DNA from: a virus
Lineage: Duplodnaviria > Caudoviricetes
DNA length: 64,000 bases
IMG/VR virus record: IMGVR_UViG_3300047275_000752
Span: 8,399 to 72,398 of that record
Direction: 5' to 3' (one strand)
Shown here: positions 4,670-42,772 of the stretch, piece by piece
Layout: every line of letters begins with the position of its first letter
How positions within the stretch are numbered: position 1 is the stretch's first letter
Made by a program: the position numbers and the translations under genes
Notes under the pieces: model-generated
Told to the model about the DNA's origin: nothing
The model's database searches: none
Seen by the model: only the letters and a program-made list of their open reading frames with translations

Positions 4670-4723
4670 TTAGTAACAACTTAGGCATACTATCGCGCCC
4701 ATTAGGCGTGATGCCTAGAAACA

Positions 4724-5473
4724 ATGTCTGAAGAAAATCTTCAACTGACTGATGACCAGCAATCACTTGAGATGAGTGGGTCTGGTGCCAATGAATCCTC
4801 TGATCAAAACGAAGGTCGAAACTATTCAGAGGAAGAAGTTCAAAACCTGTTAAAGGCACTCAAGTCTGAACGGGAAACACGCAAGATTTACGAGAAGGAA
4901 GTAAAGGAAAAAAGTCAGCAGCTTGAAAAGTTTGCGCAAATCAATCCTGATGAATATCGCAAACTGCAAGAAGAAGCTGCTATCGCCGCCCGTGAAAAGG
5001 CTGCTGCAGATGAACGGACTGCACTTCTGGAGGAAAAATACGGCGCTCAAGCTGCAGATGCGATCAAGCAGCGGGATGAGAAAGCACGTGAGCTGCAAGA
5101 ATTCCGCAAGCGTTATGCACTTGAAAAGGTATTCTTCTCCGCTGGCGGCCGGACTGATTCTGCTGATGGCGTGTCATTTTTTGACATGTTAGCGAATCAA
5201 ATTGGTGGTCAATTCCGCCTTGAAGCTGATGGCAGTATCACTGTAGTTGATTTCCAAGGTGATCCTGTATTGGATAAAGATTCAGGTCGTCGCATTCAAC
5301 CTGAAGACTATTTGAGTCAATTCAAGAATCATCCGATCTATGGCACCTTCTTCAAGGGCAACAAAGGATCTGGTGCTGGTATTGGCTATGGCGGGACTAA
5401 TGCTACCGGCATGCCTGGGGAGGACCTGCATTCCTTGACTAGCGAAGAGCTTTTCCAGCGAGCTTTTGGTTAG
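4724..5473 (+). CDS. Capsid scaffolding protein
   Basis: Acidic N-terminus, long coiled coil, GSGAG-type C-terminal motif; directly upstream of the major capsid gene. Confidence 0.75.
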   Translation: MSEENLQLTDDQQSLEMSGSGANESSDQNEGRNYSEEEVQNLLKALKSERETRKIYEKEVKEKSQQLEKFAQINPDEYRKLQEEAAIAAREKAAADERTALLEEKYGAQAADAIKQRDEKARELQEFRKRYALEKVFFSAGGRTDSADGVSFFDMLANQIGGQFRLEADGSITVVDFQGDPVLDKDSGRRIQPEDYLSQFKNHPIYGTFFKGNKGSGAGIGYGGTNATGMPGEDLHSLTSEELFQRAFG

Positions 5474-5504
5474 TAATAGTTACAAAACTTAATAATTATC
5501 ATGT

Positions 5505-5530
5505 GAACCGGTATAAAACCCGGTTCTTTT
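5505..5530 (+). terminator. Intrinsic terminator after scaffold gene
   Basis: GAACCGG-N8-CCGGTTC followed by TTTT. Confidence 0.55.
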
Positions 5531-5671
5531 ATATTTATTTCGGTAGTCTAAGTCGAGTACCCAGCCCTGAGTTGGTTGTGATGACCGATCGGGGAGGGTC
5601 TAGCGCCAATGGATGAGACATCCTGGGGCGATTTACCTTTCCTGCCAAACGTTCACCAACCATAAGGAAAA

Positions 5672-6565
5672 ATGGCACTTACTCTTGCAGAAGCCAAAAA
5701 GCATTCCAGTAATCCTCAGGAACTGGCTATTATCACTGAGCTTGCAGCCGGCCCCCTGCTGCAAAACATGCCCTTCCGTGAAGTCCAAGGCAACGGTCTT
5801 TTCTGGAAGCGCGAAGAGTCTCTCGGTGACGTGGGCTTCCGTGCTTTCAACGAAGGCTACACTGAGAGCTATGCTACTGTCAAGCAGCACAGTGAGGCAC
5901 TGAAGCTGTTCGGTGGCGACATCAAAGTTGATCGCGCTATCATCGAGCTGGAAGGCCCCGAAGCTCGCGCCTATCAGATCCAAGCCAAGACTCGCGCAAT
6001 GCGTCTGTCTTTCGAGGGTCTGTTCATCAATGGTGACTCGAACAGCAACTCTGCTGAGTTCGATGGTCTGGCTCGTCGTCTGCCTTCTGGTTCCAGCCAG
6101 TACATCGCCAATGGTGGTGGCGCTCTGGATACCGGCAAGCTGGATGAAGCCATTGACGCTGTCGACGCCCAAGGCGGCCAGAAGTATCTGGTCATGTCTA
6201 AGTCTGCTCGTCGTCATCTGAGCAAAGTTGCTCGTGCCAATGGTCAAATCGATATCGAGCGTAACGATTTCGGCTATCAGCAACTGTTCTATGGTGGCAT
6301 TCCGGTGCTTGAGCTGGATCGCGACCACCAGAACGTTGCTATTCTTGATGGTACCCCCAACAGCCAGTCGATCTATGTTGTTGCCTTTGGCAATGACCTG
6401 CTGACCGGTCTGCAGAATGGCGGTCCTCAAGTCCGTGACCTGGGTGAAGCTACTGATTCTCCCGTGCTGGTTACCCGCGTGGAATGGTATTGTGGCCTGG
6501 CTTTGATAAATGGCCGTGCCGCCGCTCGCCTTGCCGGTGTGGACGCTACCGCCGCTGTTACCTGA
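5672..6565 (+). CDS. Major capsid protein (HK97-like), 297 aa
   Basis: MALTLAEAKK start, ~300 aa, follows scaffold, AAGGA RBS, strongly biased codon use, terminator behind. Confidence 0.8.
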   Translation: MALTLAEAKKHSSNPQELAIITELAAGPLLQNMPFREVQGNGLFWKREESLGDVGFRAFNEGYTESYATVKQHSEALKLFGGDIKVDRAIIELEGPEARAYQIQAKTRAMRLSFEGLFINGDSNSNSAEFDGLARRLPSGSSQYIANGGGALDTGKLDEAIDAVDAQGGQKYLVMSKSARRHLSKVARANGQIDIERNDFGYQQLFYGGIPVLELDRDHQNVAILDGTPNSQSIYVVAFGNDLLTGLQNGGPQVRDLGEATDSPVLVTRVEWYCGLALINGRAAARLAGVDATAAVT

Positions 6566-6586
6566 TCAGTTGCCATTGTTTATCCG

Positions 6587-6608
6587 GGGTCCTGCGGGGC
6601 CCTTTTTT
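6587..6608 (+). terminator. Intrinsic terminator after capsid gene
   Basis: GGGTCC-TGCG-GGGCCC + T6. Confidence 0.75.
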
Positions 6609-6646
6609 ATTGTTTACGGTAAACTAATCTAGTTGAAATTCTGGCA

Positions 6647-9474
<2,828 letters not shown>

Positions 9475-9478
9475 AACT

Positions 9479-9934
9479 ATGCCGGCCAATACAGCCCCTA
9501 TTTTCACTGGAACTCCAAGGGTGTCAGGAGCCAGGATTACTACTGCTCAAAATAACTCACAAGGAAATGGCACCATTGGTACTGACATCTATCTCGCTTT
9601 CAGTCCTGGAGTTAATGGAAGTTACTTGCAAAAAGTAAGATTTACATTGGCAGGTGCAACGGCTAATACTGCATCTACTGCATGCGTGTTGCGAGTTTAT
9701 TTATCTACACAATCAAGTGGATCTACAACGTCTTCCAATACTTGGCTGATTCAGGAAGCTGCTGGGACGACTCAAACACCGAATGTCGTTACGACACTTT
9801 CTAATGCCACTTTCCCGATAGAAGTGCCATTAAATTTTGCGATTCCATCGGGATACAATTTATTGGTTGGATCAAGCGCAGTCACTTCCGCCAATACTGT
9901 TTGGACTGTTACAACTTATGGAGGTGACTATTGA
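9479..9934 (+). CDS. Fibre-associated structural protein, 151 aa
   Basis: MPANTAPIFTGTP...GGDY, T/S/A-rich; coupled to collagen gene. Confidence 0.5.
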   Translation: MPANTAPIFTGTPRVSGARITTAQNNSQGNGTIGTDIYLAFSPGVNGSYLQKVRFTLAGATANTASTACVLRVYLSTQSSGSTTSSNTWLIQEAAGTTQTPNVVTTLSNATFPIEVPLNFAIPSGYNLLVGSSAVTSANTVWTVTTYGGDY

Positions 9935-10089
9935 TGGATGAAATCACAATCCGGCAAGTTCGATTTACAAGCGGTCTGATTGAATCTGGGTTTGTTCATG
10001 TCGACTCCAGTCATCAGATTGTACTGTTTACCGATTTAGCAGGAAACGAGCTATTAACATACGAGTCTTGGTATCCAGAGGATGAATAA
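9934..10089 (+). CDS. Small hypothetical protein, 51 aa (not in ORF track)
   Basis: ATG overlaps the previous stop; its TAA abuts the ATG at 10090. Confidence 0.5.
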   Translation: MDEITIRQVRFTSGLIESGFVHVDSSHQIVLFTDLAGNELLTYESWYPEDE

Positions 10090-10992
10090 ATGCTGGATGT
10101 ATTACATCTCCCCGGATCTGATAGGCACGTCTTCTATTTTCCTGGTTCAGAATCCAGTAGCGGCTGGCAAGCATGGGAAGTTCCTAGGTGGGCTTCGTTC
10201 TTGGATATTTTCTGCCTAGGAGCAGGCGGAAGCGGAGGGAATGGTTTCAGTTCAGCAACTACCACGACTCGCGGCGGTGGAGGTGGAGGTGGTGGTGGGT
10301 TGGCTGGCAATTCAGTTATTCCTGCTAGTTTCTTGCCAGATGTGTTGTATATTTTCCCTGGAGCAGGAGCCTTGGCTGCTAACGGGCAATCCTCGCATGT
10401 AAGCATGGCTCCTAGTACCGCCACCTTTTATTTGATATGTACAGGTGCGGGAGGGTTTGCTGGCGGAAATGGCCAGTCTGGATCAGGGGGAACAGCAGGC
10501 TCCGTCGGCAGTTCAACAACATTGGCAAATGTTGGCCAAGGCTTTCAAGGTTTTTTCAATTCGTATCGCAACATCACTAATGGAAACGGTGTTGCGGGAG
10601 GAAGCGCTACCGGAGGAAACGGGGGGTCTATAGGTGAGAGGCAAAATATTTCAACAGGAGGAGCCGGAGGAGGAGGTGGTGCAACTGGATCCGGGGGAAA
10701 CGTGCAGGGATTTAACGCACGAATCGTCGATGACACCAATGTACCTTCGGGGAGTTCTGGTAATGTCAATAGCGTTGACGGGAAGGATGGAGCAAATGGC
10801 TCTACAACTTTGAGCCCTTTCTTCAGTAAAGGAGGTGCCGGTGGTGGAGCTGGTTTTGATGGGATTAACAGTGTTGGCGGTCGCGGTGGCGACGGAGGTT
10901 TCGGGTCTGGAGGAGGAGGTGGTGGTGCTGGAGTAACGGGAGGCATTGGCGGCCGTGGCGGAAATGGTTTAGTGATTATTACTTGTTGGTGA
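10090..10992 (+). CDS. Glycine-rich domain protein (paralogue 1)
   Basis: WEVP...CLGAGGSGG N-terminus; GGRGGNGLVIITCW C-terminus. Confidence 0.7.
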   Translation: MLDVLHLPGSDRHVFYFPGSESSSGWQAWEVPRWASFLDIFCLGAGGSGGNGFSSATTTTRGGGGGGGGGLAGNSVIPASFLPDVLYIFPGAGALAANGQSSHVSMAPSTATFYLICTGAGGFAGGNGQSGSGGTAGSVGSSTTLANVGQGFQGFFNSYRNITNGNGVAGGSATGGNGGSIGERQNISTGGAGGGGGATGSGGNVQGFNARIVDDTNVPSGSSGNVNSVDGKDGANGSTTLSPFFSKGGAGGGAGFDGINSVGGRGGDGGFGSGGGGGGAGVTGGIGGRGGNGLVIITCW

Positions 10993-10997
10993 TCAGC

Positions 10998-11936
10998 ATG
11001 ATTGACGTTTACGACATTCCTTTACCAGGAAACGGAAGAAGATCTATATTCTTCAGCCAAGGCCCTACCCCTGATGGCATCCAAGTATGGGAGAAGCCGT
11101 CTAATGTTACAATGATTTACATGACAGCTATTGGCGCCGGAGGGGCCGGTGGTAGCGGCTTCTCTTCTGCTGTTAGTACGTCTAGATGCGGCGGAGGAGG
11201 TGGAGGGTCTGGCGGAATATGCTCTATTCTTGTAGCCGCCAATCGATTACCAGACAGACTGTATGTCATTGTTGGGGATGCAAAAGACGCGACTGCTAGT
11301 AATGGTGGTACAACTGTCGTATCTATTTCTCCAGAGTTGACCAATAACAATCGCGAGTCGTACTTGCCAATGCATGTAATTGTCGGGGCCGGTGGTGGCG
11401 GACGAGGTGGTAATGGAACTGCAACTTCTAGGGGCGGCGCTGGAACCGCTTCGGTTGGTTTCGGGAAAGGTACGAGTTCTTTTTCCGGCCCACAAAGTAT
11501 TGTTTCTGCGATTACTGGACAAAATGGCTCAACAGGAGGAAACATAAACACTGGCACAGATCTAACATATCCAGCCACTGGAATACTGCTTTCCGGCGGA
11601 ACTGGCGGAGGAGGTAACGCTGGTTATAGAGGTGGGAATTTGAACGTGCCAGCAAGTCAGAACAGCGCAAATATCATCATTCCTTCTCTTGATGGAGGCA
11701 GTCCTGGGCTTTTCGGCACGCGAGCCGGAGGCCGTGGCTTAGATGGTTTCGCTAGATTTGATTTTCTAGCATTCACTGGCGGAACAGGAGGCGGTTCTAG
11801 TTACGATGATACTGCTTCCGGCGGAGACGGAGGAGTAGGGGCTATTGGCTGTGGAGGTGGAGGCGGGGGTGCTGGTAACCCTGGAGGAACTGGTGGCCTA
11901 GGTGGAAACGGTCTAGTCATTATCACTTGCTGGTGA
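10998..11936 (+). CDS. Glycine-rich domain protein (paralogue 2)
   Basis: WEKP...AIGAGGAGG; GGLGGNGLVIITCW; ATG at 10998 preferred. Confidence 0.7.
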   Translation: MIDVYDIPLPGNGRRSIFFSQGPTPDGIQVWEKPSNVTMIYMTAIGAGGAGGSGFSSAVSTSRCGGGGGGSGGICSILVAANRLPDRLYVIVGDAKDATASNGGTTVVSISPELTNNNRESYLPMHVIVGAGGGGRGGNGTATSRGGAGTASVGFGKGTSSFSGPQSIVSAITGQNGSTGGNINTGTDLTYPATGILLSGGTGGGGNAGYRGGNLNVPASQNSANIIIPSLDGGSPGLFGTRAGGRGLDGFARFDFLAFTGGTGGGSSYDDTASGGDGGVGAIGCGGGGGGAGNPGGTGGLGGNGLVIITCW

Positions 11937-11941
11937 AAAAC

Positions 11942-12835: not shown

Positions 12836-13021
12836 GTATTATGTTGTTATGTGTAGATAAAAGTTAGTGGTATCGACCGTTAGCCGGAAGGTGGCTGGCG
12901 CTTAGAAACCCCCCAGTAAATGATATCAGGTAGTGACTATTCGTCAATATAAACTGCCCTTATTGACTTAATTGTTGTTACAATGTAGACATCGAATTGC
13001 TGGCCATTGCTGGACTGTTAA

Positions 13022-14623: not shown

Positions 14624-14650
14624 GAAACCTAGCAAGATGCTGGCACCGCA

Positions 14651-17749: not shown

Positions 17750-17788
17750 CCTGCTTGCAGGTAAACTAATTGAAGATTATCGCCTGGC

Positions 17789-18634: not shown

Positions 18635-18657
18635 CGTATTCACCTTCCTGATCAAAG

Positions 18658-18849: not shown

Positions 18850-18929
18850 GATTGGAATACTAAAAAGAATCGCGCCACTACTCTACGGGGCGGGTTCTGT
18901 AACACCTCTCATTAATAAGGAGAATTCAA

Positions 18930-25902: not shown

Positions 25903-26358
25903 ATGGCAGACGCAGACAAGCGCAAACTCAAGGACCTGACCCCTGCCGAACGGGAGACCTTCGAGCAGGGGTGGAACGAAATCGGCAAATCCATTGGAGA
26001 GCTGGTGGCGTCCCGCGCCAAAACCACGGCATGGGCTTGGTCTCTGATCGCGCCACTAGGCATGTATGAACGCTGGATGCTCTATGGATGGATAGATAGA
26101 TCAAAAAAATTGCTATCCAATAGGAGAAGGCCAACTAGTGGTAGGCCACAATTGACCAATAAATGCTTTGAACGTAGTAAGTTCAGTAATTCCAGTGAAC
26201 TGATTCAAGTCTTGAAGCTGGTAAAAGGTGGCCTGTCTCCACAGGAGGCCATGGAGGTCTTCAATCAGCAGAAGAACCTGTATACTGTCAAAGACGACTC
26301 AAGGAACAATGCCCCTCGTACCCAATCTCGCAGGAGTAGCAAGCCAGGAACTGGTTGA
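25903..26358 (+). CDS. Hypothetical protein, 151 aa
   Basis: Start moved to ATG 25903, behind TGGTATGAT extended -10; the upstream extension runs through the iteron repeats. Confidence 0.5.
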   Translation: MADADKRKLKDLTPAERETFEQGWNEIGKSIGELVASRAKTTAWAWSLIAPLGMYERWMLYGWIDRSKKLLSNRRRPTSGRPQLTNKCFERSKFSNSSELIQVLKLVKGGLSPQEAMEVFNQQKNLYTVKDDSRNNAPRTQSRRSSKPGTG

Positions 26359-27028
26359 GACTATTGGTACTGGCTCTTACCGAGCTAGCTATATCAACTG
26401 GGCCAGGACGTTCAACCTGCTGCATCAACACGCCCCGGATTGGATGCTGGAAACTATTCCAGCACCCGATGGCAGTAATGTATGGCGTGCACCTGGCAAT
26501 GGCGGCTACCTGATGCTTAGATTTGTGCATTCAGAGGGCCATGTAACACCTGCCGTACCTCAGGCAGTCATGGATAACAGGAATAATCCTATCCCTTATG
26601 AGCGTATCAGCGCGAGGGACATTACCGATACGCATCGGCGTGGTGGTTGCATGGCGGCTGCTATGATCTTTGGCCTTGCTCATGAACTGTGGGCTAAAAT
26701 GCCCCTGGAGAGCGGCTATCCAGAAGCCGATACAGAGACCCAGGTGGCCCCTGGAGGGGCCTTCCAGGCGCCCACAGAGGCCACTATGCAAGATTTCCTT
26801 GAGGCATGCCTTGAGAAAGGTCTAACACCTGTTGCGGCAGATACATTGCTTGACTTGATCGGAACGAATTACGCTGGTGGCATAAAAAGCCTTGCAAATA
26901 AAACCTCAGATTGGGTGACTGAGCAGAACGAGAAAGCGGCTGAGGAGAGCAAGAAATCTGAACTTGGGGCTGCGCCAGCAAAACAATCTGTAAAAAAGAC
27001 AAGCAAGCCCAATCCAGAGGATTATTGA
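26309..27028 (+). CDS. Single-strand annealing protein, Sak3/DUF1071-like
   Basis: YINWA motif, AVMDNRNNPI and RRGGCMAAAMIFGLAHELW; recombination module context. Confidence 0.65.
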   Translation: MPLVPNLAGVASQELVETIGTGSYRASYINWARTFNLLHQHAPDWMLETIPAPDGSNVWRAPGNGGYLMLRFVHSEGHVTPAVPQAVMDNRNNPIPYERISARDITDTHRRGGCMAAAMIFGLAHELWAKMPLESGYPEADTETQVAPGGAFQAPTEATMQDFLEACLEKGLTPVAADTLLDLIGTNYAGGIKSLANKTSDWVTEQNEKAAEESKKSELGAAPAKQSVKKTSKPNPEDY

Positions 27029-27198: not shown

Positions 27199-28014
27199 AT
27201 GTTTAAGTCTTCGACTCAAGACGAGCTAACAGCATGGATGAATGCTGCTGGCAATCATAAAATCTTGGCTCCAGATGAAATTGATATTATCGCTAGGCAA
27301 ATAAAAACAGCGGAACCTGGGTCAGCCGAGCATGTGCGATTGGTTAATTATCTGACGATGCACAACTTGAGGCTTGTTATCAAGTTTGTCAAGAATTTCA
27401 TGTCAGGTAAAACCAAGAAAAAGTATGGTTGCACTGAAACGGTGGACTACTTACAGGTAGGCACTCTTGGCCTTAGAAGAGCTGCTGAATGTTATGACCC
27501 GACTCGTGGGTATAAGTTTTCCACCTATGCCTACCCATGGATTAGGTCATTTGTGAGCAGATACAACATGAAGGTGTCAAGTATTTTCCATATACCGGAA
27601 AACGCACTGAGGGATGCATGGTATTACGAAGCTCATGGCCATATCAAAACTAAAACCAAGTCTGGGTTTAGGGATGAAGCTTACTGTATTGAACTTAGGG
27701 ACAAGGTGCGAGCTGCTCAATCGCCAGTATCTCTGGATCTTAAGGTTGGCGACGACGAGTCTATCCCCCTTGGCCTGACGATTGAGAGCACTTACCCAGA
27801 GCGCACCAGGGAGGGTGAATTTCCATTGGAAATTGAAGACATGATCGATGCGGCTGGACTGACAAAAATGCAAAAAGAAATCATAAAGGCCTTTTACCTG
27901 CAAGACATTGACATGGAGCAACTGGCTAAAGCCTATTCAGTTACTAGAGATAAGATTAAATCTGTGAAAGAGTCCGCGATCCAACGCCTCAGAATGGCCA
28001 ATGGATTGGTATAA
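27199..28014 (+). CDS. RNA polymerase sigma-70 factor, RpoD/group 2-like
   Basis: HNLRLVIKFVK, DYLQVGTLGL, YDPTRGYKFSTYAYPWIR, PVSLD. Confidence 0.85.
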   Translation: MFKSSTQDELTAWMNAAGNHKILAPDEIDIIARQIKTAEPGSAEHVRLVNYLTMHNLRLVIKFVKNFMSGKTKKKYGCTETVDYLQVGTLGLRRAAECYDPTRGYKFSTYAYPWIRSFVSRYNMKVSSIFHIPENALRDAWYYEAHGHIKTKTKSGFRDEAYCIELRDKVRAAQSPVSLDLKVGDDESIPLGLTIESTYPERTREGEFPLEIEDMIDAAGLTKMQKEIIKAFYLQDIDMEQLAKAYSVTRDKIKSVKESAIQRLRMANGLV

Positions 28015-28477: not shown

Positions 28478-28480
28478 ATC

Positions 28481-28933: not shown

Positions 28934-28936
28934 GCC

Positions 28937-29179: not shown

Positions 29180-29183
29180 ATCA

Positions 29184-29946: not shown

Positions 29947-29968
29947 TGAAGTACGCGCTAGTTAAAAG

Positions 29969-30808: not shown

Positions 30809-31017
30809 TGACTCAAAACAACAGTAATGTGTCCAGTGCTAGTATGGGATTTAGTGGATGGCTTACCATCTTATTCATAGGCCTGAAACTGACGGGTTAC
30901 ATTAGTTGGCCGTGGATCTGGGTGTTGTCGCCATTATTGATTTCGCTTTCGTTGCTGCTGACCATACTCCTTGTCTGCCTGTTAATCATCGGACTCATTA
31001 AACTGACCGAGAAATGA
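30808..31017 (+). CDS. Small membrane protein, 69 aa
   Basis: LTILFIGLKLTGYISWPWIWVLSPL, a common phage TM family. Confidence 0.6.
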   Translation: MTQNNSNVSSASMGFSGWLTILFIGLKLTGYISWPWIWVLSPLLISLSLLLTILLVCLLIIGLIKLTEK

Positions 31018-31766: not shown

Positions 31767-31809
31767 TTCGATTCATGATATATTGGTATAATAGTTAGCA
31801 CTTGGCGAG

Positions 31810-32439
31810 ATGCCTGCTGTGTCGGAATGGCGAGAAGCTAAACCTCCCAAACGTGAGGCTGGTCCTATTTACAACTTTAGGCGCGGCTATGATCTAGAAG
31901 CGGCTAAAATGCACGAAAATGCTGAGCAGTATGCTTGTTTCCAGAAATACTTGATGATTCAAGGTGCTAGAAGCTTGAACGAACTGGAAAGATTAACAGA
32001 TCATAGCTCGAATACGCTTTCAAATTGGAGCAAGACTTTTGAATGGGAGAAGCGTGCTGTCGAGTACGACAAGAAACAAATGGCTATTGTATGGCGGCAG
32101 GCGGAAAAATTGCACAGAAATAAGCACAAAGAAGCCATTGTTCAGTTTAGGGAATCTTCTGAACGACAGGCAAAAATGATGTCAAAGGTCTCGGAAGACC
32201 TGATACGTCTTCTGGGTGATCGGATACTAAGGGCGGAGGAACAAAACGAAGAAGTTCCAATGAATCTAGTGTCTGGGCTGCTTCGTGCGGCAGCTTCTAT
32301 CACGGAACAATCTCGCCAGTCTTGGGCCAATGCTTTAGGCATCAATCAGATGATGGAAATGGTCGAAGCTGAAATGCAAAATCTTACAGTCGAAGACGTT
32401 ACTGACGTTGATGCCTATGAGATCCCGATCGATGAATGA
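31810..32439 (+). CDS. terS: Terminase small subunit (putative)
   Basis: HTH-like N-terminus (WSKTFEWEKRA), helical body, just upstream of terL. Confidence 0.6.
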   Translation: MPAVSEWREAKPPKREAGPIYNFRRGYDLEAAKMHENAEQYACFQKYLMIQGARSLNELERLTDHSSNTLSNWSKTFEWEKRAVEYDKKQMAIVWRQAEKLHRNKHKEAIVQFRESSERQAKMMSKVSEDLIRLLGDRILRAEEQNEEVPMNLVSGLLRAAASITEQSRQSWANALGINQMMEMVEAEMQNLTVEDVTDVDAYEIPIDE

Positions 32440-32620
32440 GTCACCTGAAGATAATAAGTTTCCGATGACCGTAACGGAAACTGAAGACGGTGGTTTTATT
32501 ATTGAGTGGGATGGGAGTCATCCTGTTACATCGATATTCAATGAATGGACTGAACAGGATTTCATAAACATGTTAGACTTAGCATGTAGAGATGCATTGG
32601 AACCGGAGATAGACAAGTGA
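32432..32620 (+). CDS. Hypothetical protein, 62 aa
   Basis: ORF between terS and terL. Confidence 0.5.
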   Translation: MNESPEDNKFPMTVTETEDGGFIIEWDGSHPVTSIFNEWTEQDFINMLDLACRDALEPEIDK

Positions 32621-34116
32621 CTGATCGAATCAGTAAGAGGTTGATCGAGCAAGCCGCCTCCGATCGCCAAATGGTTCGTGAGCTTAAAAGAATAAAAACA
32701 CAGAAGAAAGAAGGCGGCCAACAGGTAATACTGCATAAATTTATCAAACAAGTAGCATCAAGCTACAAGTTCTATCGTGTACACGCAGAGCTTACTAAGC
32801 AATTGCAACGAATAGTAGACGGTGACTGTAAGCGTCTAATTATTCAAATTCCACCTCGTACGGGCAAGAGCTACCTTTCTTCTAAGCTGTTCCCAGCGGC
32901 TTACCTGATGGCACACCCAGACAGGTACGTTGGCATAGTTTCGTATAGTGCTGAACTTGCCGAAGGCTTCTCTAGATCGGCCAGGGATTATTATCGACAG
33001 GCTGGCGGCACTTTTGACCCGTATAAACAGGCTGTCAATGACTGGGGAACCCAGGGAGGCGGTGGCTTGTGGGCAGCCGGTGTTGGAGGTGCTATTACTG
33101 GCCGCTCAGGTCACCTGCTGATCATTGACGACCCCGTCAAAAACAGGGAGGACGCAGACAGTCCAAGGATCATGGAAAAGCTTTGGGACTGGTATACTTC
33201 AACATTGTACACACGACTCGAACCACAAGTTGGTGCAATTGTCGTATGTCAAACACGTTGGAGTGAGAATGATTTGATTGGTAAGCTGCTTGAATCGGAG
33301 ATGAATGTCTCAGAAAAAGGCAGGGAGCATTGGACTATACTTGACCTGCCTGCAATATCAGAAGATCCAGGCTCCAGGCCTCCATTGCCATCTCATTGTG
33401 AAGTAATAGAAGATTGGAGACAGGAGCCTGGTCTTGCGTTATGCCCTCAGCGATATGATATAGATGAATACGAGCGGATCAGAGAAGCCATTGGCGCCAG
33501 GGACTTCGCTGCACTCTTCCAGCAACGCCCTGCCCCTCAAGGTGGTAACATGTTTGATCCAAACTGGTGGGGCTACTATGACCACTCTAGTACATTGCCT
33601 GAATTCCAGCGCATAATGTTAAGTGTTGACTGTACATTTACAAACGCAAACACTAGCGACTATGTCGTTGGCTCTGTGATTGCTCAAGCCGGTAATTCTT
33701 TCTATGTACTAGATCTTGCACGTGAAAAGACTGATATAATGGGCACTATGGCGATGATATCAAGAATGCATAACAGGCATTCTCTTAGCGGAACGATAAT
33801 TGAATTAGCTGCATCTGGTTATGCTGCATATCAAATCCTATCAAAGAAAATTCCAGGGATGATAGGCTTCAAGCCCGAGAAATCAAAAGTGGCAAGAGCA
33901 ACAGGTATTGTGCCGGTAGTTGAGGCTGGAAATGTTTATCTGCCGGCGAGTGCACCCTGGCTGGATGCTTTCATAAATGAATTTAGCTTATTCCCGGCCG
34001 CAAAGAACGATGATATAGTTGATTCCATATCAATGGCAATCAATTATATGACGCAAAGGTCTGCTCCGGCGATGACGGAGGTAAGCTGGGGTCGCGGTAT
34101 ACCGTTGCCTTATTAG
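32617..34116 (+). CDS. terL: Terminase large subunit
   Basis: PPRTGKS Walker A, LLIIDD Walker B, SVDC and KNDDIVDS nuclease motifs. Confidence 0.92.
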   Translation: MTDRISKRLIEQAASDRQMVRELKRIKTQKKEGGQQVILHKFIKQVASSYKFYRVHAELTKQLQRIVDGDCKRLIIQIPPRTGKSYLSSKLFPAAYLMAHPDRYVGIVSYSAELAEGFSRSARDYYRQAGGTFDPYKQAVNDWGTQGGGGLWAAGVGGAITGRSGHLLIIDDPVKNREDADSPRIMEKLWDWYTSTLYTRLEPQVGAIVVCQTRWSENDLIGKLLESEMNVSEKGREHWTILDLPAISEDPGSRPPLPSHCEVIEDWRQEPGLALCPQRYDIDEYERIREAIGARDFAALFQQRPAPQGGNMFDPNWWGYYDHSSTLPEFQRIMLSVDCTFTNANTSDYVVGSVIAQAGNSFYVLDLAREKTDIMGTMAMISRMHNRHSLSGTIIELAASGYAAYQILSKKIPGMIGFKPEKSKVARATGIVPVVEAGNVYLPASAPWLDAFINEFSLFPAAKNDDIVDSISMAINYMTQRSAPAMTEVSWGRGIPLPY

Positions 34117-34118
34117 TA

Positions 34119-34748
34119 ATGGCTCGAAAACCATTTGATTTCAAGCTCACGCCAGATCAGCAAAAAATGGCGATAGCCAATATTAACCTGGCAAGACGCG
34201 AAGCCTGGAGGATACAGCGGACTACTGGCATAGAATATTCTGTTCTGGAGGGTGCAGCCTTCCTTGGCCTATGCAAGGCTTGCAATAGATATGATCCTGA
34301 TTCTGGTTACAAATTCTCCAGTCTTGCTACACCAACAATCAGGGGCGAGCTTTTGCATTGGGTAAGGGATAGGACTTATGCAATGAGATTGTCCCACAAA
34401 ATGAGGGAAAATTGGATAAAAGGACGCAGGATGATCTTTGATGGTAAAAGCGATATAGAAGTATCAGCATTTCTCGGGATAACATTGCAAGAATGGCAAG
34501 AAGTCCGCTCTGCGTGTTCTGGACCACCTCTCGAACTAAAGGATCAGGCAATGCCGTCAGACCCCTTGGAACCAGAGGAGTTTGATTTTAAAAATGATTA
34601 CAGAGAAATAGCTGAATCGATAATCGAAGAAATGTCAGAAAAAGAATACGACGCGCTATTGGCTTATTACAAAGGAGACGCGTCAAAGGCCCCATTACGA
34701 ATCTTTAATTCATTGTGTAATTCTCTGAGGAAAAGAAAAGTTTTGTAA
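34119..34748 (+). CDS. RNA polymerase sigma factor, SigF/SigB-like (group 3)
   Basis: GLCKACNRYDPDSGYKFSSLATPTIRGELLHWVRD. Confidence 0.8.
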   Translation: MARKPFDFKLTPDQQKMAIANINLARREAWRIQRTTGIEYSVLEGAAFLGLCKACNRYDPDSGYKFSSLATPTIRGELLHWVRDRTYAMRLSHKMRENWIKGRRMIFDGKSDIEVSAFLGITLQEWQEVRSACSGPPLELKDQAMPSDPLEPEEFDFKNDYREIAESIIEEMSEKEYDALLAYYKGDASKAPLRIFNSLCNSLRKRKVL

Positions 34749-34812
34749 ATTGGTTGCCACCCACCGATCCCATGCCTAAGATCAGTCAGTACCTTAGCAG
34801 TAGCCACGGCTT

Positions 34813-36402: not shown

Positions 36403-36403
36403 G

Positions 36404-36628
36404 ATGTCAGAATCTAAATACATTGTTTACACCAAGGACGGGTGTCCTTTTTGTAATCAGGCGAAAGGTTTACTTGAATATTACAAAGTCCCGTATGAAT
36501 TGGTTTACGATAAGTCGCCTGACTGGGAAACCTATCCCTGTATTTATAAAGTAAATACGCAAGGAGACAAGGAGCTAATAGGCGGATTTTCTGAATTGGC
36601 TAGCTACTCCTATTTGCATGGACTATGA
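36404..36628 (+). CDS. grx: Glutaredoxin
   Basis: VYTKDGCPFC, TYP, IGGFSEL; near RNR. Confidence 0.85.
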   Translation: MSESKYIVYTKDGCPFCNQAKGLLEYYKVPYELVYDKSPDWETYPCIYKVNTQGDKELIGGFSELASYSYLHGL

Positions 36629-36875
36629 GATCATGTCACCAGCAATCCAGGCTTACCTCATCGTAATTGCCGCCTTTGTCGTCTTGTTCCCTGTTGACGC
36701 CAGTAATGGCGTCACTCTGGTGTGGTTATGGCTGCTGACCAGGGTTCTTAATTACTATTTAATGTTTAGGGCGTACATGATGTACCTCCGGCTTAGGTCT
36801 GACTTTGCTAAACTAGGTATGCCGATGCCGGCATTCAAGTTCGTTCCCATCTGGGAGAGAAATGGCAGCAACTAA
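36618..36875 (+). CDS. Membrane protein, 85 aa
   Basis: Two hydrophobic segments. Confidence 0.5.
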   Translation: MDYEIMSPAIQAYLIVIAAFVVLFPVDASNGVTLVWLWLLTRVLNYYLMFRAYMMYLRLRSDFAKLGMPMPAFKFVPIWERNGSN

Positions 36876-37008
36876 AAAGCTTAACAAAAAGACACTCTCA
36901 GGCAGCCTGGGACCGATTGAGCACGTCGGCAAAAAGACAACTCAAGGCAATGGATCCCGCTCGAAGCCGAAGAAAAACAGGAAAAAGTATAAGGGGCAAG
37001 GTAAGTAG
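36862..37008 (+). CDS. Small basic protein, 48 aa (not in ORF track)
   Basis: KKTTQGNG...KKYKGQGK, a motif widespread in aquatic phages. Confidence 0.6.
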   Translation: MAATKKLNKKTLSGSLGPIEHVGKKTTQGNGSRSKPKKNRKKYKGQGK

Positions 37009-37010
37009 AT

Positions 37011-37349
37011 GTGAAACGTTTTGTTCCTTTGCAATCGCCAAGGAATGCTTACCTGGTTAAATCCCTAGTAGCAGAAGGTCGATGCGTTAGTGCAGTAAAA
37101 TACTTGTATGCACTACGCAGATTCAGCATGGTCGACTGGTTAGTCGCCATTAGCCAACTACTGAGGATGGCTGAAAAGCCAAATGAGCTGAATACTTATG
37201 CGACCCTAATAGAGGTATCAAAGGGTTCTCTTCTTGACCAGAAGGCTCATCTAGTGCCAGGGTTGGCAGCCGATCTGCATGGAAGGAAATTTGACTATGA
37301 GCACTGCTTGCTTTTGATTAAACAGATCAGATCTGATCGCGGCTTTTAG
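37011..37349 (+). CDS. Hypothetical protein, 112 aa
   Basis: ORF in operon context. Confidence 0.4.
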   Translation: MKRFVPLQSPRNAYLVKSLVAEGRCVSAVKYLYALRRFSMVDWLVAISQLLRMAEKPNELNTYATLIEVSKGSLLDQKAHLVPGLAADLHGRKFDYEHCLLLIKQIRSDRGF

Positions 37350-37379
37350 CGGTAATCTATCCTTGCATCCAAAATCACA

Positions 37380-40300
37380 ATGACCGAATTCAATCAGTTC
37401 GCCCCATCTGCCCATGCTGTCTTTTATCGCTCGTATTCGCGACGCAAAGAAGATGGTTCCAGGGAAAACTTTGCGGAATCAATAACCCGGACGATTAATG
37501 CTATTGCGAAAGTTGGTAAATTTACCTCTTCGCAAACTGCTTTAGCACTTGAAATGGCGTTAAAGCAACACTGCTTTCCTAGTGGACGAGCACTTTGGGT
37601 GGCTGGTACTGAATGGTCAGAAAAACCTGATAATTTTCCTGGTTATTATAACTGCTGTTCCATGCATGTTGATGAGCCCTCAATGTTTGGGTTGCTCATG
37701 GAGCTAGCGATGATGGGCACAGGTACTGGCGCAGTCCTTGAATCGGATGTCGTAGCAAAGCTGCCAGCAATTACCAGGGCTATCAACATCATTGATATAA
37801 TTGATAACCAAGGCGTCGAAGGTGGTAAAGCTGATACTGTAATCACCTATGAAGAAGAAGATCAAATTATTTACCTGACAGTTGGCGATTCTCGCCAAGG
37901 CTGGGCTTCTGCTTATCAGGGCTTGATTGAACTGGCAATGGGCAATCTGGCTGATGGCGAATCTGCTGCAGATGATATAAACATTATCCTCGATTTATCT
38001 GAAATCCGTCAAGCCGGACAATTACTGAAAGGATTTGGTGGTACTGCAAATCCAGTCAGACTGCAAGAAACCTTCGAGAGGGCGGCCAGGATCCTGCTTA
38101 AAGCAAAAGGTCGTAAGCTAACAGCAATTGAATGCTGTCTATTGATCGACGAGGCGGCCAGCGCCGTTGTCGCCGGCAACATTCGTCGTTGTTTACCAGG
38201 CAATGCCCTCGTTCACACTGAACTAGGTCTTGTGCCAATTCGTGATATCAAGATTGGCACAATGGTGCAAACCTCGAAGGGATTGCGCCCTGTTGTCGAC
38301 TTTTTTGATCAAGGCAAGCAGGTTATTTACGAAATCAAAACACAAGACGGAAGCCTGTTTTGCTCGAAAGAGCATAAAGTAGCTGTACTGCGCGATATTT
38401 ATGGTGCGTATGAAATGGTCAAGGCAATTGACCTTAAGGCCGGTGATCGAATGGTTGGTAACCATTTGATTGTCGCTGGTCACAGTACCAGCTTACCGGT
38501 TGCTGCTAATACGAAAGCAAATTCACGCAAGCCTCGCAAGCCAATAACTATTCCAAAACTAGATAAAGAAGTTGCCTATTTCCTTGGTTATTTACACGGT
38601 AATGGCAATGTTAAATCAGACGGTAGCGGTATTCGTATAACTGGACCCAGTGGTTTTGAGGCTATTGCCACCAGATGTTCTAGTGTGCTTCAGCGATTTG
38701 GGTTTGATTCACGTCTTGTCAGCAAAAGCGATGCCTCGGCGTGGGAATTGACAGCGAATGGATCTGAATTAAATGCTTACTTCCGTAATTTTAAGCAAGT
38801 ATTTTCGCAACCAATTATCCCTGATTGCATTCTCCAAGGGACAGAAGAAATCCGCTGGCATTACCTGGGAGGCCTGATGGATTCCGATGGTTCACCTGGT
38901 ACTCATGTCCTGTTGAATTCTGTGTATCCGGAATTCAGTCATCAAATTCAAGCTATTTATAGCTCTCTTGGAGTTCCGACTCGCATCGAAAAGCGTCTCC
39001 GTAAAAATAATCATGAATGCGAGCTGAATGCAGTCGGTCTGCATAAGCAGAAGATCTATCAAGTATTTTCAAGCATTTGCACTCGTTATCCCTGTCTTGC
39101 AACTAAACCATCTGACACCAGCAGGAATCAGCATGGGTTCGATAAAGAAATGGTGAAAGCCAGCATCAAAGGCATCAACTGGAGCCAATGCCAGGCCCAG
39201 AAGAGTTGTGTGTCGCTTGCTGCAATCGAACCAGCAATGACTGATCTTATTCCAATTACAGTAATTGATGTACAACCTACATCGCGTATCGAAGATACAT
39301 TCGATATTGAGGTCAAAGATATCCACGAATTTTATTGCAATGGCTATCTTGTTTCGAATTCAGCGGGCATGCGTCAATTTACGTCAAGCGACGAAGAGGC
39401 AGCTTCTGCCAAGGATGGTCTGTATAAGCAAGACGAGAGCGGAAACTGGAGCGTTGATCCTGAGAAAGAAGCACTCAGGATGGCTAATCATACTAGATGC
39501 TTCCACACTAAGCCGGATCACGAAACAATTAAAGCTTCTATTGAGAAGCAGTTTTGGTCTGGTGAGGGCGCAATTATGTATGTGCCCGAATCTATTGCCA
39601 GGGCCAATGCCGACCTGCTAAATACCAAGCAGTTAAAGCAGCGGTTCCTGGGGCTGTATACACGCAGTCAAGATGACGCTCGTCAGATGTTGGTGGAGCT
39701 AGCAGAAAAGGCTGGTGAGCCGACTGATGATCGCATCATTCAGCATCGGATGGATCGGTATGGGCTTAACCCCTGCTTTGCGCCAGGCACTATTGTGATG
39801 ACCAGTGAAGGCTACTTCCCAATTGAATCACTGGTTGGCAAAACTGTTGAGATTCATGATGGGAATGAGTGGCGTACTATTGACAACTTCCGAGTTACAG
39901 CGCATGACCAAGATGTATACGATGTAACCTTGCATGACGGAACTGTCATTACAGCGACTGAATACCATAAATTTATCCTGAAGGATGGCACCAGGGTAGA
40001 ACTGAAGGATCTAAAGCAGGGCGACGAGTTAATGGCAGCCACTATCGAGCCCGTGACGGGAACTATTCAGGCACATGCCGCCTACCTTAAAGGATTTCTA
40101 ATTGGCGACGGAACGTCTGACAAGGGTCAGCGAGCAGCCTGTAAGTTGTATTCTCCCAAGAAAGTATGCGTCGACCGTCTGAGGGCTTCTAGGAACGAGC
40201 TGGGGTATTTTGAAGGTGAAACACTAACTCCGGCCGGGTATTTGCGTGGTTTAAATACCGCCAATGAAGACATGACTCCGTGGTCATCTACATACAAGCA

Positions 40301-41882
40301 TGTATTTCCTCACGAAGTACTGAATTGGACGACTGAGGCCAAAGGCGAGTTTATTGCCGGATTGTTTGACGCAGACGGCACTCTTCGTGACACTAAAGAG
40401 AACGGCTTTTCTTATCAGATCACTAGCGTTAGTCTTGAATTTCTGCGCGGTCTAGTGACCTTGTTGCGAACGGTTGGAATCGGGGCAAAAATTGGCCCTC
40501 CGCGACAAGGTGGCCTTAAAAACTTTGGCGCCGATCGGGGTGGCGTTTGCGTGGTCCAGCCTACTTATCGTCTCGCTATTTCACAGTTCAATTCAATTAA
40601 ACTAGCTAAAATCGCAAAATTTGAAAGATTAAAAAGTGTTGCTGACAAAGAAATTGTTTATATCAAAAAACTCGGTTATAACAAAGTAAAAGAAATTACT
40701 TATTCTCATTGCGCACCCGAGGTTTATTGTTGCACTGTTCCCGTAACGAACTCTTTTACACTTGGTTCGTCGATAGTTGTTGCGAATTGCGGAGAGATAA
40801 TCATGCGAGACAATCTTTGCAATCTTTCGGAGGTTCACCTGAATACACTGGATCCAGTCAACAAGGAACTGCAACACCAGGTATTCTATGCCGGCGGCCT
40901 GCAAGTCGCTGCACTGCTGCAACATAAATTTGTCCCCGAACGCCTTGCTTATAGCCGTGAGAACGATCCAATTGTTGGCGTCAGTTTTACTGGCCTGTTT
41001 GACTTTTTTGTTCATGCTTTTGGTGCCTCTTGGCTGAAATGGATGATGAAAGGCAGGCCCAGTGGTTCTGCATACAAAAAGTACACTGCCAAGGAAAAAG
41101 CCTTCTTGGAATCATGGAGGATCAGCGCGGAGCAAGGTGTTAAGGATTACTGTGCTCAACACGAGATTCGTCTCCCTAATCGATTCACCACTGTGCAGCC
41201 AGCAGGCTCCAAGAGCTTGCTGACAGGCGCATCATCTGGCTGGCATCCTCCAAAGGCTCAGCGATTCATTCGTCGAATCACGTTTGGGGTCAACGATCCA
41301 CTGGTTAGCGCTCTCAGGGATTATGGTTACAGTGTTATCCCAGCACAAAGCGCGAGGGACGAGGAGGGCAACCTGCTTGATGATATTACAGATCCTAGGG
41401 TTCGCGAAGTCTTGGTGGAAATTCCAACTGAAGTATCTTGGGCGAATCTCCCTGGATGTGATGAGTTTGACTTGAGCAAGCTACCTGTCACTGCTCAGTG
41501 GGGACTGTATATGCAAGTCCAAAAATATTATACAACGCATAACACATCGGCCACTCTGGAATTTCGTGAAAATGAAATAGATGAATTGACTAGTCTAATT
41601 TATCAAGACATCCAGTCCGATGGTGGCTATATATCGGCAGCACTACTTGCTCGATTCGATGCCAATGAAACTTTCCCGAGGTTGCCGTTTGAGCCAATTG
41701 ACAAACAAACTTTCGATCGTAGAATGGCTGTAGTTAAATTAGTCCGGGATAGCCTGCCGGAGGGCACCACAATGCTTGATTTGCTTTCAAGATATGACAA
41801 TCCTGGCTACGAGTTAAAAGGGGCTGCTGGCTGTGACTCAGACAAATGCCTTGCCGAGGAAAAAGTGCCATTCAGTAAATAG
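37380..41882 (+). CDS. nrdJ: Class II (B12-dependent) ribonucleotide reductase with two inteins; about 772 aa after splicing
   Basis: PSGRALW, YNC, VVAGNIRR|SA, NP|CGE, TTVQPAGSKSLL; no class I beta subunit gene seen. Confidence 0.9.
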   Translation: MTEFNQFAPSAHAVFYRSYSRRKEDGSRENFAESITRTINAIAKVGKFTSSQTALALEMALKQHCFPSGRALWVAGTEWSEKPDNFPGYYNCCSMHVDEPSMFGLLMELAMMGTGTGAVLESDVVAKLPAITRAINIIDIIDNQGVEGGKADTVITYEEEDQIIYLTVGDSRQGWASAYQGLIELAMGNLADGESAADDINIILDLSEIRQAGQLLKGFGGTANPVRLQETFERAARILLKAKGRKLTAIECCLLIDEAASAVVAGNIRRCLPGNALVHTELGLVPIRDIKIGTMVQTSKGLRPVVDFFDQGKQVIYEIKTQDGSLFCSKEHKVAVLRDIYGAYEMVKAIDLKAGDRMVGNHLIVAGHSTSLPVAANTKANSRKPRKPITIPKLDKEVAYFLGYLHGNGNVKSDGSGIRITGPSGFEAIATRCSSVLQRFGFDSRLVSKSDASAWELTANGSELNAYFRNFKQVFSQPIIPDCILQGTEEIRWHYLGGLMDSDGSPGTHVLLNSVYPEFSHQIQAIYSSLGVPTRIEKRLRKNNHECELNAVGLHKQKIYQVFSSICTRYPCLATKPSDTSRNQHGFDKEMVKASIKGINWSQCQAQKSCVSLAAIEPAMTDLIPITVIDVQPTSRIEDTFDIEVKDIHEFYCNGYLVSNSAGMRQFTSSDEEAASAKDGLYKQDESGNWSVDPEKEALRMANHTRCFHTKPDHETIKASIEKQFWSGEGAIMYVPESIARANADLLNTKQLKQRFLGLYTRSQDDARQMLVELAEKAGEPTDDRIIQHRMDRYGLNPCFAPGTIVMTSEGYFPIESLVGKTVEIHDGNEWRTIDNFRVTAHDQDVYDVTLHDGTVITATEYHKFILKDGTRVELKDLKQGDELMAATIEPVTGTIQAHAAYLKGFLIGDGTSDKGQRAACKLYSPKKVCVDRLRASRNELGYFEGETLTPAGYLRGLNTANEDMTPWSSTYKHVFPHEVLNWTTEAKGEFIAGLFDADGTLRDTKENGFSYQITSVSLEFLRGLVTLLRTVGIGAKIGPPRQGGLKNFGADRGGVCVVQPTYRLAISQFNSIKLAKIAKFERLKSVADKEIVYIKKLGYNKVKEITYSHCAPEVYCCTVPVTNSFTLGSSIVVANCGEIIMRDNLCNLSEVHLNTLDPVNKELQHQVFYAGGLQVAALLQHKFVPERLAYSRENDPIVGVSFTGLFDFFVHAFGASWLKWMMKGRPSGSAYKKYTAKEKAFLESWRISAEQGVKDYCAQHEIRLPNRFTTVQPAGSKSLLTGASSGWHPPKAQRFIRRITFGVNDPLVSALRDYGYSVIPAQSARDEEGNLLDDITDPRVREVLVEIPTEVSWANLPGCDEFDLSKLPVTAQWGLYMQVQKYYTTHNTSATLEFRENEIDELTSLIYQDIQSDGGYISAALLARFDANETFPRLPFEPIDKQTFDRRMAVVKLVRDSLPEGTTMLDLLSRYDNPGYELKGAAGCDSDKCLAEEKVPFSK
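38190..39359 (+). mobile_element. Intein 1 in NrdJ (390 aa, LAGLIDADG endonuclease)
   Basis: Starts CLPGNALV, ends YLVSN before Ser; FLGYLHGNG and LGGLMDSDG motifs. Confidence 0.9.
39774..40787 (+). mobile_element. Intein 2 in NrdJ (338 aa, LAGLIDADG endonuclease)
   Basis: Starts CFAPGT, has TEYH block B, ends IVVAN before Cys of NPCGE; LKGFLIGDG and IAGLFDADG motifs. Confidence 0.9.
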
Positions 41883-41919
41883 CCGGCTATAATGGGGGTG
41901 CCATGACACGGTAGTTGGC

Positions 41920-42201
41920 TTGCCGGCAGACAAGGGTCTCTTTACCCACCCAGCGTGGGCCATCCCCGAGAAAGACCATTCACACTATGGTCCAGATGTC
42001 CAGATTGCCCTGACCGCCTTCAGGGGAGCCTGGGCATCTTATATTTCCATGACGAAATATGATTTTGGTGATGATTCTCAAAATATGAGGACCACTGCCA
42101 TGCAAGAGTTATGGAACAGCATAGCTAGAGCAAGAAAAGCAGAGACGGGAACTGGATTCTATTTAAATCAAAAGGAGTACAAAAATGTCAACGATCGTTG
42201 A
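41920..42201 (+). CDS. Hypothetical protein, ~93 aa
   Basis: ORF after TATAAT at 41888-41893. Confidence 0.4.
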   Translation: MPADKGLFTHPAWAIPEKDHSHYGPDVQIALTAFRGAWASYISMTKYDFGDDSQNMRTTAMQELWNSIARARKAETGTGFYLNQKEYKNVNDR

Positions 42202-42697
42202 TTTCCAAATAGAAGCCCTAGCGCTGTCAGGTCTACTGGTACACCCTTTCCGGGCTGATCAAGTGAATCCGGCTTCGTACGATGTCCGGCTCGCCGATAA
42301 AATATTAGTAGAAACACCAGAATACGGGTGGGTAGAGCGGGGGCTTCCGTACTTATTAGAACCTGGGGAATTTGTGCTTGGTAGTACTCAGGAATGGTTG
42401 AATGTTCCTGAGGACATGGAGGCATTATTTCAGTTAAAGTCATCACGCGGGAGGGAGGGCTACGAACACCTGCTTAGCGGATACATTGATCCAGGTTTTT
42501 CTGGCCGGGTCACTTTGGAGTTAGTGAATGTAAATAGATACAATGAACTACCTCTATTCACTGGAATGCTAATCGGCCAGATTAGATTTATCAAGACAGA
42601 TGCACCATGTAGGGCCTCGTATGAGCTAAAAGGTCACTACCAAGGAGATGACACTGTGCAACCATCAAAAGTAAGCGCAGACGGCTTGCTTCGTTAG
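42185..42697 (+). CDS. dcd: dCTP deaminase
   Basis: NPASYDVRL, LEPGEFVLGST, KSSRGREG, IDPGFSGRVTLE, YQG. Confidence 0.9.
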   Translation: MSTIVDFQIEALALSGLLVHPFRADQVNPASYDVRLADKILVETPEYGWVERGLPYLLEPGEFVLGSTQEWLNVPEDMEALFQLKSSRGREGYEHLLSGYIDPGFSGRVTLELVNVNRYNELPLFTGMLIGQIRFIKTDAPCRASYELKGHYQGDDTVQPSKVSADGLLR

Positions 42698-42772
42698 GCA
42701 GAAGGGCATCGTTCTGGGAATCCTAAGAGAGCCATTGGCGTGACGCCGGCAAGTTCTTAGGCGCGATGCCCC

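Follow-up and report, generated by a model that had tools for sequence, protein, structure and literature searches.

The window analysed here is a 64,000-nt stretch of phage DNA, comprising bases 8399-72398 of a 72,398-bp IMG/VR virus genome (IMGVR_UViG_3300047275_000752) that is rated complete. It carries genes for a head scaffolding protein, a major capsid protein (MCP), the small terminase TerS, TerL and a portal protein, and these identities, proposed in an earlier note made from the letters of the window, hold in PHROG and Pfam comparisons (Table 1). The head genes are scattered and do not lie in a single late operon. How tailed phages set the differing amounts of capsid, scaffold, portal and terminase proteins is poorly understood, above all where the genes are scattered in this way. 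We describe a small hairpin in the leaders of four units, namely scaffold, capsid, terS (followed by terL and a sigma factor gene) and portal (followed closely by two small genes). The hairpin is a real, strongly conserved cis-acting RNA motif that defines this four-unit head-gene set, and its distribution suggests a regulatory role.

On protein similarity the phage is related to S-CBS2, a siphovirus of Synechococcus. Its portal protein is about 67% identical to those of S-CBS2 and S-CRES1-3, all Synechococcus siphoviruses, and 46% identical to that of PSS2, and it encodes two sigma factors (27199-28014 and the one behind TerL), as S-CBS2 likewise does. No isolated phage matched the scaffold-to-tail region in a megablast search. 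Relatives were collected from IMG/VR via protein searches and comprise 80 portal loci, 67 capsid loci including scaffold, and 20 TerL loci including terS, to which the S-CBS2 genome was added. The group is widespread and infects Synechococcus in both fresh and marine water.

Hairpins ahead of the scaffold, capsid, terS and portal genes

All six hairpins that the earlier note had described are found (Table 1). It had also estimated that less than one copy of GGCGNGAYGCC should occur by chance; four are seen against 0.14 expected, and 0 of 100 shuffled sequences reached four. These four copies are all on the sense (+) strand and all fall in intergenic DNA, which makes up 6.4% of the genome, with none elsewhere in the 72,398-bp record and none on the other strand. 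The pattern GGC-GNGAY-GCC is real but too narrow, since the stem can be any 3-8 bp and the loop is better written G-H-G-A-Y. A scan of the window for G-N-G-A-N loops on stems of at least 4 bp returned seven intergenic sense matches and no intergenic antisense match, and two copies overlooked before came to light, one in the scaffold coding sequence (scaffold hairpin 2) and one in terS (terS hairpin 2). The latter may be a coding by-product, because its stem overlaps the codons of a conserved peptide, SEWxEAK, and relatives retain the stem with CAGAA or ATGAA loops, which are not of the GNGA type. GNGAN hairpins at 12929, 51901 and 57348 were taken as chance occurrences, the promoter motif described below not being directly upstream of them.

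A promoter had been predicted ahead of each hairpin. A generic sigma-70 scan is positive only at terS, whereas a recurrent phage motif, GGNANN[C/A]TA, sits 5-25 nt upstream of each first hairpin. This motif occurs in 21 intergenic plus-strand copies in the window, ahead of about 20 genes that include tail genes, structural genes and a ribonucleotide reductase gene. Its usual distance from the start codon is 20-25 nt, and one of the two phage sigma factors probably takes part in its recognition. As it also precedes the ribonucleotide reductase gene, it may not be exclusively "late". Further sites are found, for example, at 2490, 6618, 14623, 17760, 18854, 20593 and 37351, at genes without a Shine-Dalgarno sequence. 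Among the roughly 20 genes with this motif, hairpins occur only in the scaffold, capsid, terS and portal leaders.

The arrangement of these leaders follows the gene. Scaffold leaders of the relatives consist of the motif, 9-16 nt, hairpin 1, 5-10 nt and the ATG, with hairpin 2 about 20-30 nt into the coding sequence (39 nt in the window). Portal leaders have the motif, 5-15 nt, hairpin A, about 20 nt and hairpin B, to which marine relatives add a third hairpin, and in 41 of 53 leaders 1-2 nt separate the ATG from the end of the last hairpin. At terS the start codon lies inside hairpin 1 or at its edge. Scaffold, terS and portal, like other genes with short leaders, are devoid of a Shine-Dalgarno sequence, the exception being capsid, which has AAGGA. 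The ATG formed by some loops was considered as a small upstream open reading frame and rejected, as U is missing from position 5 in half of the loops, so that this ATG is not conserved.

Gene specificity was measured in windows from -150 to +60 of the scaffold, capsid, portal and terS starts. Hairpin density there is 9.5/kb on the sense strand, against 1.05/kb on the antisense strand and 0.69/kb in the remaining DNA of the related phages (0.98 Mb); restricting the count to stems of at least 5 bp gives 4.18/kb in the four-gene windows and 0.12/kb in the rest. A covariance model trained on the relatives only ranks the leader hairpins of the window 1, 2, 4, 5, 6, 9 and 13 (scaffold hairpin 1 first, portal A second, capsid 1 fourth, capsid 2 fifth and scaffold 2 sixth), with E-values of single hits that are weak, 0.014-3.9, as expected for 21 nt. 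Other matches to the model, at 56755(-), 62778, 25772(-), 10981 and 15127, are in coding or other contexts and were not retained. When the four windows are masked, the combination of the promoter-like motif and a hairpin within 35 nt is found 15 times in all loci on both strands, and 13 of the 15 are further scaffold, terS or portal leaders. The enrichment near starts, the promoter-motif survey and the combined signature all bear out the tie to the four head-gene leaders that had been noticed at first. Neither this genome nor S-CBS2 nor the flanks of the relatives yielded a fifth target gene bearing hairpins.

Table 1. Window coordinates of the genes, promoter-like motifs, hairpins and capsid-leader regions
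Feature	Position	Strand	Remarks
Head scaffolding protein gene	4724-5473	+	phrog_206, E 1.6e-27
MCP gene	5672-6565	+	phrog_212, E 5.5e-77; Pfam GP7, SU10_MCP
Small terminase gene terS	31810-32439	+	phrog_6299
TerL gene	32617-34116	+	phrog_38; downstream of terS
Sigma factor gene after TerL	34119-34748	+	Sigma70_r2
Portal protein gene	42773-44272	+	phrog_145, E 4.9e-84; DUF4055
Promoter-like motif GGCATACTA, scaffold	4684-4692	+	Upstream of hairpin 1 in 39/41 leaders of relatives
Promoter-like motif GGTAGTCTA, capsid	5542-5550	+	Present in 51/52 relatives
Promoter-like motif GGTATAATA, terS	31785-31793	+	Also fits sigma-70 -10 hexamer
Promoter-like motif GGAATCCTA, portal	42717-42725	+	Aligned across portal loci
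Scaffold hairpin 1, TTAGGC-GTGAT-GCCTAG	4702-4718	+	Ends 5 nt before ATG 4724; core TAGGC-GTGAT-GCCTA 4703-4717
Scaffold hairpin 2, TCACTT-GAGAT-GAGTGG	4763-4779	+	Within coding sequence, codons 14-19, 39 nt in
Capsid-leader hairpin 1, GTTGGTT-GTGAT-GACCGAT	5571-5589	+	Core TTGGTT-GTGAT-GACCGA 5572-5588
Capsid-leader hairpin 2, GGAT-GAGAC-ATCC	5611-5623	+	
terS hairpin 1, GGC-GAGAT-GCC	31804-31814	+	Start codon 31810 enclosed (loop and 3′ stem)
terS hairpin 2, TGGC-GAGAA-GCTA	31828-31840	+	Within terS coding sequence; uncertain
Portal hairpin A, TTGGC-GTGAC-GCCGG	42735-42749	+	Core GGC-GTGAC-GCC 42737-42747
Portal hairpin B, GGC-GCGAT-GCC	42760-42770	+	Ends 2 nt before ATG 42773
Capsid leader, structured RNA of about 115 nt	5559-5671	+	Conserved in 48 non-redundant relatives
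Capsid leader region 1, ACCCAGCCCTG	5559-5569	+	
Capsid leader region 2, CGGGGAGGGT	5590-5599	+	
Capsid leader region 3, ACCTTTCCTG	5635-5644	+	

Conservation and fold of the hairpin

Hairpins with the loop G-H-G-A-Y and differing stems are found at matching positions in about 170 related loci. The stems of relatives include TAGGC/GCCTA, TAGGGT/ACCCTG, CCAAGG/CCTTGG, CCGAC/GTCGG, GTCGT/ACGAC and TGCC/GGCA. Counted on non-redundant leaders, at least one hairpin is present in 41/41 scaffold leaders (at least two in 33), in 54/60 portal leaders (at least two in 52) and in 9/14 terS leaders, and capsid leaders carry at least two in 48/51. Hairpin 1 of terS has the stems GGC/GCC, TTAGC/GCTGG, GGA/TCC and GATTCA/TGGATC in different relatives and is absent in others. 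Among 256 distinct hairpins, loop positions 3-4 are fixed as G-A, position 2 is A in 116, U in 90, C in 49 and G in 1, position 5 is U in 128, C in 81, A in 34 and G in 13, and C-G closes the stem in 151. With a median free energy of -1.4 to -6 kcal/mol these are weak hairpins; nonetheless, the loop is strictly kept.

That the site is a folded RNA, as was supposed from the constant loop and the changing stems, is borne out by compensatory substitutions, and the covariation upstream of orthologous genes that the earlier note named as a check is present in scaffold, capsid and portal leaders. In anchored alignments of scaffold hairpin 1 (A1) and hairpin 2 (A2), 86.6% and 91.9% of cells are paired, respectively, with 41 and 57 changes on both sides, those of hairpin 2 spread over all six pairs; 0 of 500 shuffles were as high in either case, and sliding the partners against each other drops pairing to 32-54%. 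Both sets were selected for at least three inner pairs, and the unselected outer pairs covary too. RNAalifold applied to unselected scaffold leaders predicts the same hairpins, with compensatory changes in 11 of 13 predicted pairs, and the capsid and portal leader alignments agree with this result: at the middle pair of portal hairpin B, 31 sequences have GC and 18 have CG. At capsid hairpin 2 both inner stem pairs are kept in 48/48 sequences and changed on both sides in 21-24, and in this unselected alignment G1, G3 and A4 of the loop are invariant. G·U pairs account for 125 of 1,108 stem pairs (11%), and such pairs are impossible on the opposite strand. The compensatory changes and the many G·U pairs show an RNA structure of the sense strand, and the motif as defined by these alignments is a small sense-strand RNA hairpin with a stem of 3-8 bp of any sequence, mostly with C-G as closing pair, and the loop G-H-G-A-Y. 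RNAalifold favours pairing of G1 with Y5, which leaves a three-base loop; equally possible is a five-base loop with a GNRA-like fold, in which one base is additional to the tetraloop.

The cultured phage S-CBS2 has hairpins ahead of its scaffold homologue and its capsid, portal and terS genes. Its deposited portal coding sequence begins 78 nt upstream of the conserved ATG (66407) and reads through the leader hairpins (66329-66406 of the record, equivalent to 26329-26406 of locus L086), so that the portal start is probably mis-annotated. The portal leader of PSS2 has no hairpins, and the motif therefore marks the S-CBS2-like group together with some intermediate lineages such as L072. A portal clade of 37% identity likewise belongs to the hairpin-negative relatives. 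Portal leaders of the four loci L017, L042, L067 and L076 have a GGYCG/CGRCC stem with a loop of 7-9 nt (for example TGTGCGCAG or CAAGTGA) instead of G-H-G-A-Y; at least one of them, L076, taken together with L147 of the same contig, retains normal hairpins in its scaffold and capsid leaders.

The capsid leader

Between its promoter-like motif and the ATG, the capsid gene has a longer structured leader, in which the two hairpins are embedded. Region 2 of this leader (Table 1) is complementary both to region 1, in a helix that encloses hairpin 1, and to region 3, in a helix that encloses hairpin 2. Pairing of regions 1-2 has a mean of about -15 kcal/mol against -10.5 for shuffled sequences, these means being read from output rows, and pairing of regions 2-3 a mean of -18.1 against -12.5 kcal/mol; in almost every one of the 44-45 relatives compared, both are stronger than their shuffled controls. 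In either helix the GGGU core that belongs to region 2 is paired in 41-48 of 48 sequences, and because it is nearly invariant, covariation cannot pick between the two. The minimum-energy fold of the window uses regions 2 and 3 (z-score -2.57), and the consensus fold of the alignment uses regions 1 and 2. The capsid leader may thus be a two-state RNA with mutually exclusive helices that share the GGGU core, and perhaps a switch. Masking of the capsid Shine-Dalgarno sequence by region 3 was considered and discarded, as their complementarity is about that of shuffled sequences (-5.1 vs -4.9 kcal/mol).

Possible roles of the hairpin

The reading that we favour, with a probability of about one half, is that the hairpins are operators, placed on or close to translation starts, through which a single trans-acting factor coordinates the head genes. 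It draws on the sense-only structure near starts, the strict loop on weak and freely varying stems, the paired copies and the linkage of four units. Each of these units would be transcribed from its own GGNANN[C/A]TA motif, which would place a hairpin at the very start of the scaffold, capsid, terS-terL-sigma and portal messages. Here it would be bound by a factor, probably an RNA-binding protein encoded by the phage, and binding would hide or expose the initiation region, which is devoid of a Shine-Dalgarno sequence, so that the outputs of the four head genes would be coupled, whether by repression or by activation.

Translational operators of this kind are known from phages, such as those of the MS2, Qbeta and PP7 coat proteins on the replicase start and those of T4 gp43 and RegA. 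The present hairpins resemble them in being small and weak, with a specific loop on a free stem at or over the start codon. As there, protein binding would stabilise the hairpin and block initiation. Placement against or around the start codon, as in coat-protein operators, is seen at terS, portal and scaffold, three of the four units, but not at capsid. Unlike the MS2 type, one motif here serves four separate genes of a double-stranded DNA phage, the copies are paired or tripled, and the G-H-G-A-Y loop is unrelated to the known ones and has no bulged base.

A narrower form of the same idea, which we regard as unlikely, makes the factor an unassembled head protein (scaffold, capsid, portal or TerS), or else a small phage protein dedicated to this task, that binds all four messages, with the capsid leader as a protein-operated switch. 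The state of procapsid assembly would in this way adjust how the head parts are translated, and binding would select one of the two capsid-leader helices, formed by region 2 with either region 1 or region 3. Each of the four head proteins proposed has a hairpin on its own message. In P22, free scaffold lowers its own synthesis at a post-transcriptional level, and the present case would be similar in that the output of head assembly is proposed to be controlled after transcription, with the scaffold gene as one target. The two differ in that the RNA element is defined here and the protein is not, and we know of no defined RNA motif common to the capsid, portal and terminase genes of P22. As candidate binder, the best conserved of the small basic proteins, a Trp/Arg-rich protein of 117 aa encoded after the portal gene (44522-44875), was examined and rejected, since its presence does not track the hairpins. 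Of 80 related loci, 71 have it behind portal. It also has a homologue in PSS2, despite the hairpin-less portal leader there, and was not found in the sampled flank of one hairpin-bearing relative; its predicted structure is beta-rich (predicted local distance difference test score, pLDDT, 77) without a convincing match in PDB, and it belongs to no Pfam or PHROG family.

Several observations weigh against a shared operator. Among the conserved open reading frames whose function is unknown, none matched an RNA-binding family or fold. Both capsid hairpins are 40-100 nt upstream of the ATG, so that simple occlusion cannot work there, and the spacing of paired hairpins varies with the gene (about 23, 37 and 43-61 nt). 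Furthermore, the terS hairpin is missing in 5 of 14 non-redundant relatives. Of the post-transcriptional regulon proposed in the earlier note, the folded RNA and its tie to the four head-gene leaders are supported, that to terS less strongly; binding by a phage protein, a balancing of expression and a role of scaffold as regulator are hypotheses, and no candidate binder emerged. Finally, the start of the first hairpin is 5-16 nt past the promoter-like motif. If transcription starts 6-8 nt after the -10-like hexamer, this corresponds to about +3 to +6 of the transcript, a position that would equally suit a plain 5′-terminal stabiliser.

Indeed, 5′ stem-loops stabilise E. coli and phage messages, and the hairpins might do no more than protect against RNases that depend on the 5′-end, the loop being kept because a GNRA-like fold steadies a short stem. 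We consider this doubtful. It leaves unexplained the second and third hairpins near or in coding regions (scaffold 2, portal B and C), as well as the exclusion of G at loop position 2 (1/256) and the preference for Y at position 5. The promoter motif also stands before about 16 other genes that have no hairpins, many stems are just 3 bp with a free energy near -2 kcal/mol, and portal and TerS are low-copy proteins for which extra message stability has no obvious use.

Less probable still is a signal in nascent RNA to RNA polymerase, either an antitermination element of the boxB or put type or a pause element after promoter escape. The N-boxB nut sites of lambdoid phages are promoter-proximal and have a short stem with a five-base, G-initial loop of the pattern G-N-R-N-A. 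The hairpins here share the short stem, the five-base G-initial loop, the proximity to the promoter and possibly a GNRA-like fold, and 13% of the loops, being GNGAA, fit G-N-R-N-A. A terminator-like hairpin at 5505-5526, between the scaffold and capsid genes, also speaks for such a signal. However, the loop is G-H-G-A-Y, with Y rather than A at position 5 in 82%, and hairpins that abut start codons of structural genes or lie in the scaffold coding sequence are not expected of such a signal. Each target, moreover, has its own promoter directly upstream, and the stretches scanned right after the hairpins contained no terminator-like site. No boxA-like element accompanies them either: a search for boxA (CGCTCTTTA) with at most one mismatch gave 4 matches against 13 expected, none near a hairpin. 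An arginine-rich antiterminator of the N type was not found among 30 open reading frames scanned, nor seen among the conserved ones examined, in a search that was not exhaustive for small frames. No hairpin of the set is itself called as an intrinsic terminator or followed by a U run.

Recruitment of ribosomes by the loop is very improbable. AUCAC, beside the anti-Shine-Dalgarno sequence at the 3′-end of 16S rRNA, is a perfect complement of GUGAU, so that the loop would replace the Shine-Dalgarno sequence that the target genes lack, and the portal loop ends 4-5 nt before the ATG. Position 2 of the loop, however, is U in only 35% (A in 45%, C in 19%), and portal, where the spacing fits, has mostly GCGAY loops, which are mismatched. 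In addition, loops range from -100 to +40 relative to the ATG, and other phage genes lacking a Shine-Dalgarno sequence manage without a hairpin. That the elements are DNA palindromes for a dimeric regulator, or an artefact of chance or composition, is hardly credible: GGC-N5-GCC is a perfect palindrome in the four exact copies of the window, but the arms vary freely around a conserved asymmetric centre, which is the opposite of a DNA-binding site. On the complementary strand, the 11% of stem pairs that are G·U would become A·C mismatches; there is also a strict strand bias, and chance predicts 0.14 copies. No rival, be it stabiliser, polymerase signal, ribosome-binding loop or palindrome, covers all the features.

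The motif is apparently undescribed. At gathering scores, Rfam 15 returned three tRNA matches only for the whole window, and an E-value search with the portal, scaffold and capsid leaders gave chance-level matches only (E at least 1). No published description was found in the literature on S-CBS2, on cyanosiphovirus promoters or on translational repression by scaffold. GGA loops of the CsrA/RsmA type were not found, G occupying loop position 2 in 1 of 256 hairpins. Cluster K mycobacteriophages have a fixed 13-bp element, SAS (GGGATAGGAGCCC), 3-8 bp before starts, mostly in the non-structural half of the genome; SAS and ESAS occur in one orientation, are thought to act in translation, and the inverted-repeat arms of ESAS follow a consensus (PMC3203893). 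The present motif is likewise a repeated short element in one orientation upstream of starts in a subset of genes, but it differs in its free stems, fixed loop and head-gene targets, and is not a SAS.

What the comparison defines is a concrete, phylogeny-supported RNA element common to exactly these head genes, and a candidate new family for RNA databases. As it is short, has the invariant loop bases G1, G3 and A4 and occurs in phages in culture, S-CBS2 among them, it is directly testable, and the hairpin may serve as bait for a new RNA-binding regulator.

Apart from the head-gene leaders, the window has a few further features. The class II ribonucleotide reductase (1,500 aa, 37380-41882) holds an intein with a LAGLIDADG homing endonuclease. 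A tRNA cluster lies on the minus strand at 51670-55815, where Leu-TAA, Met-CAT and Arg-TCT are confirmed by Rfam; beside it is a stretch poor in open reading frames (about 54800-55730) with two odd calls made by ARAGORN only. At the right end, 62001-64000, the G+C content is 63%, against about 46% elsewhere, and the open reading frames are on the minus strand.

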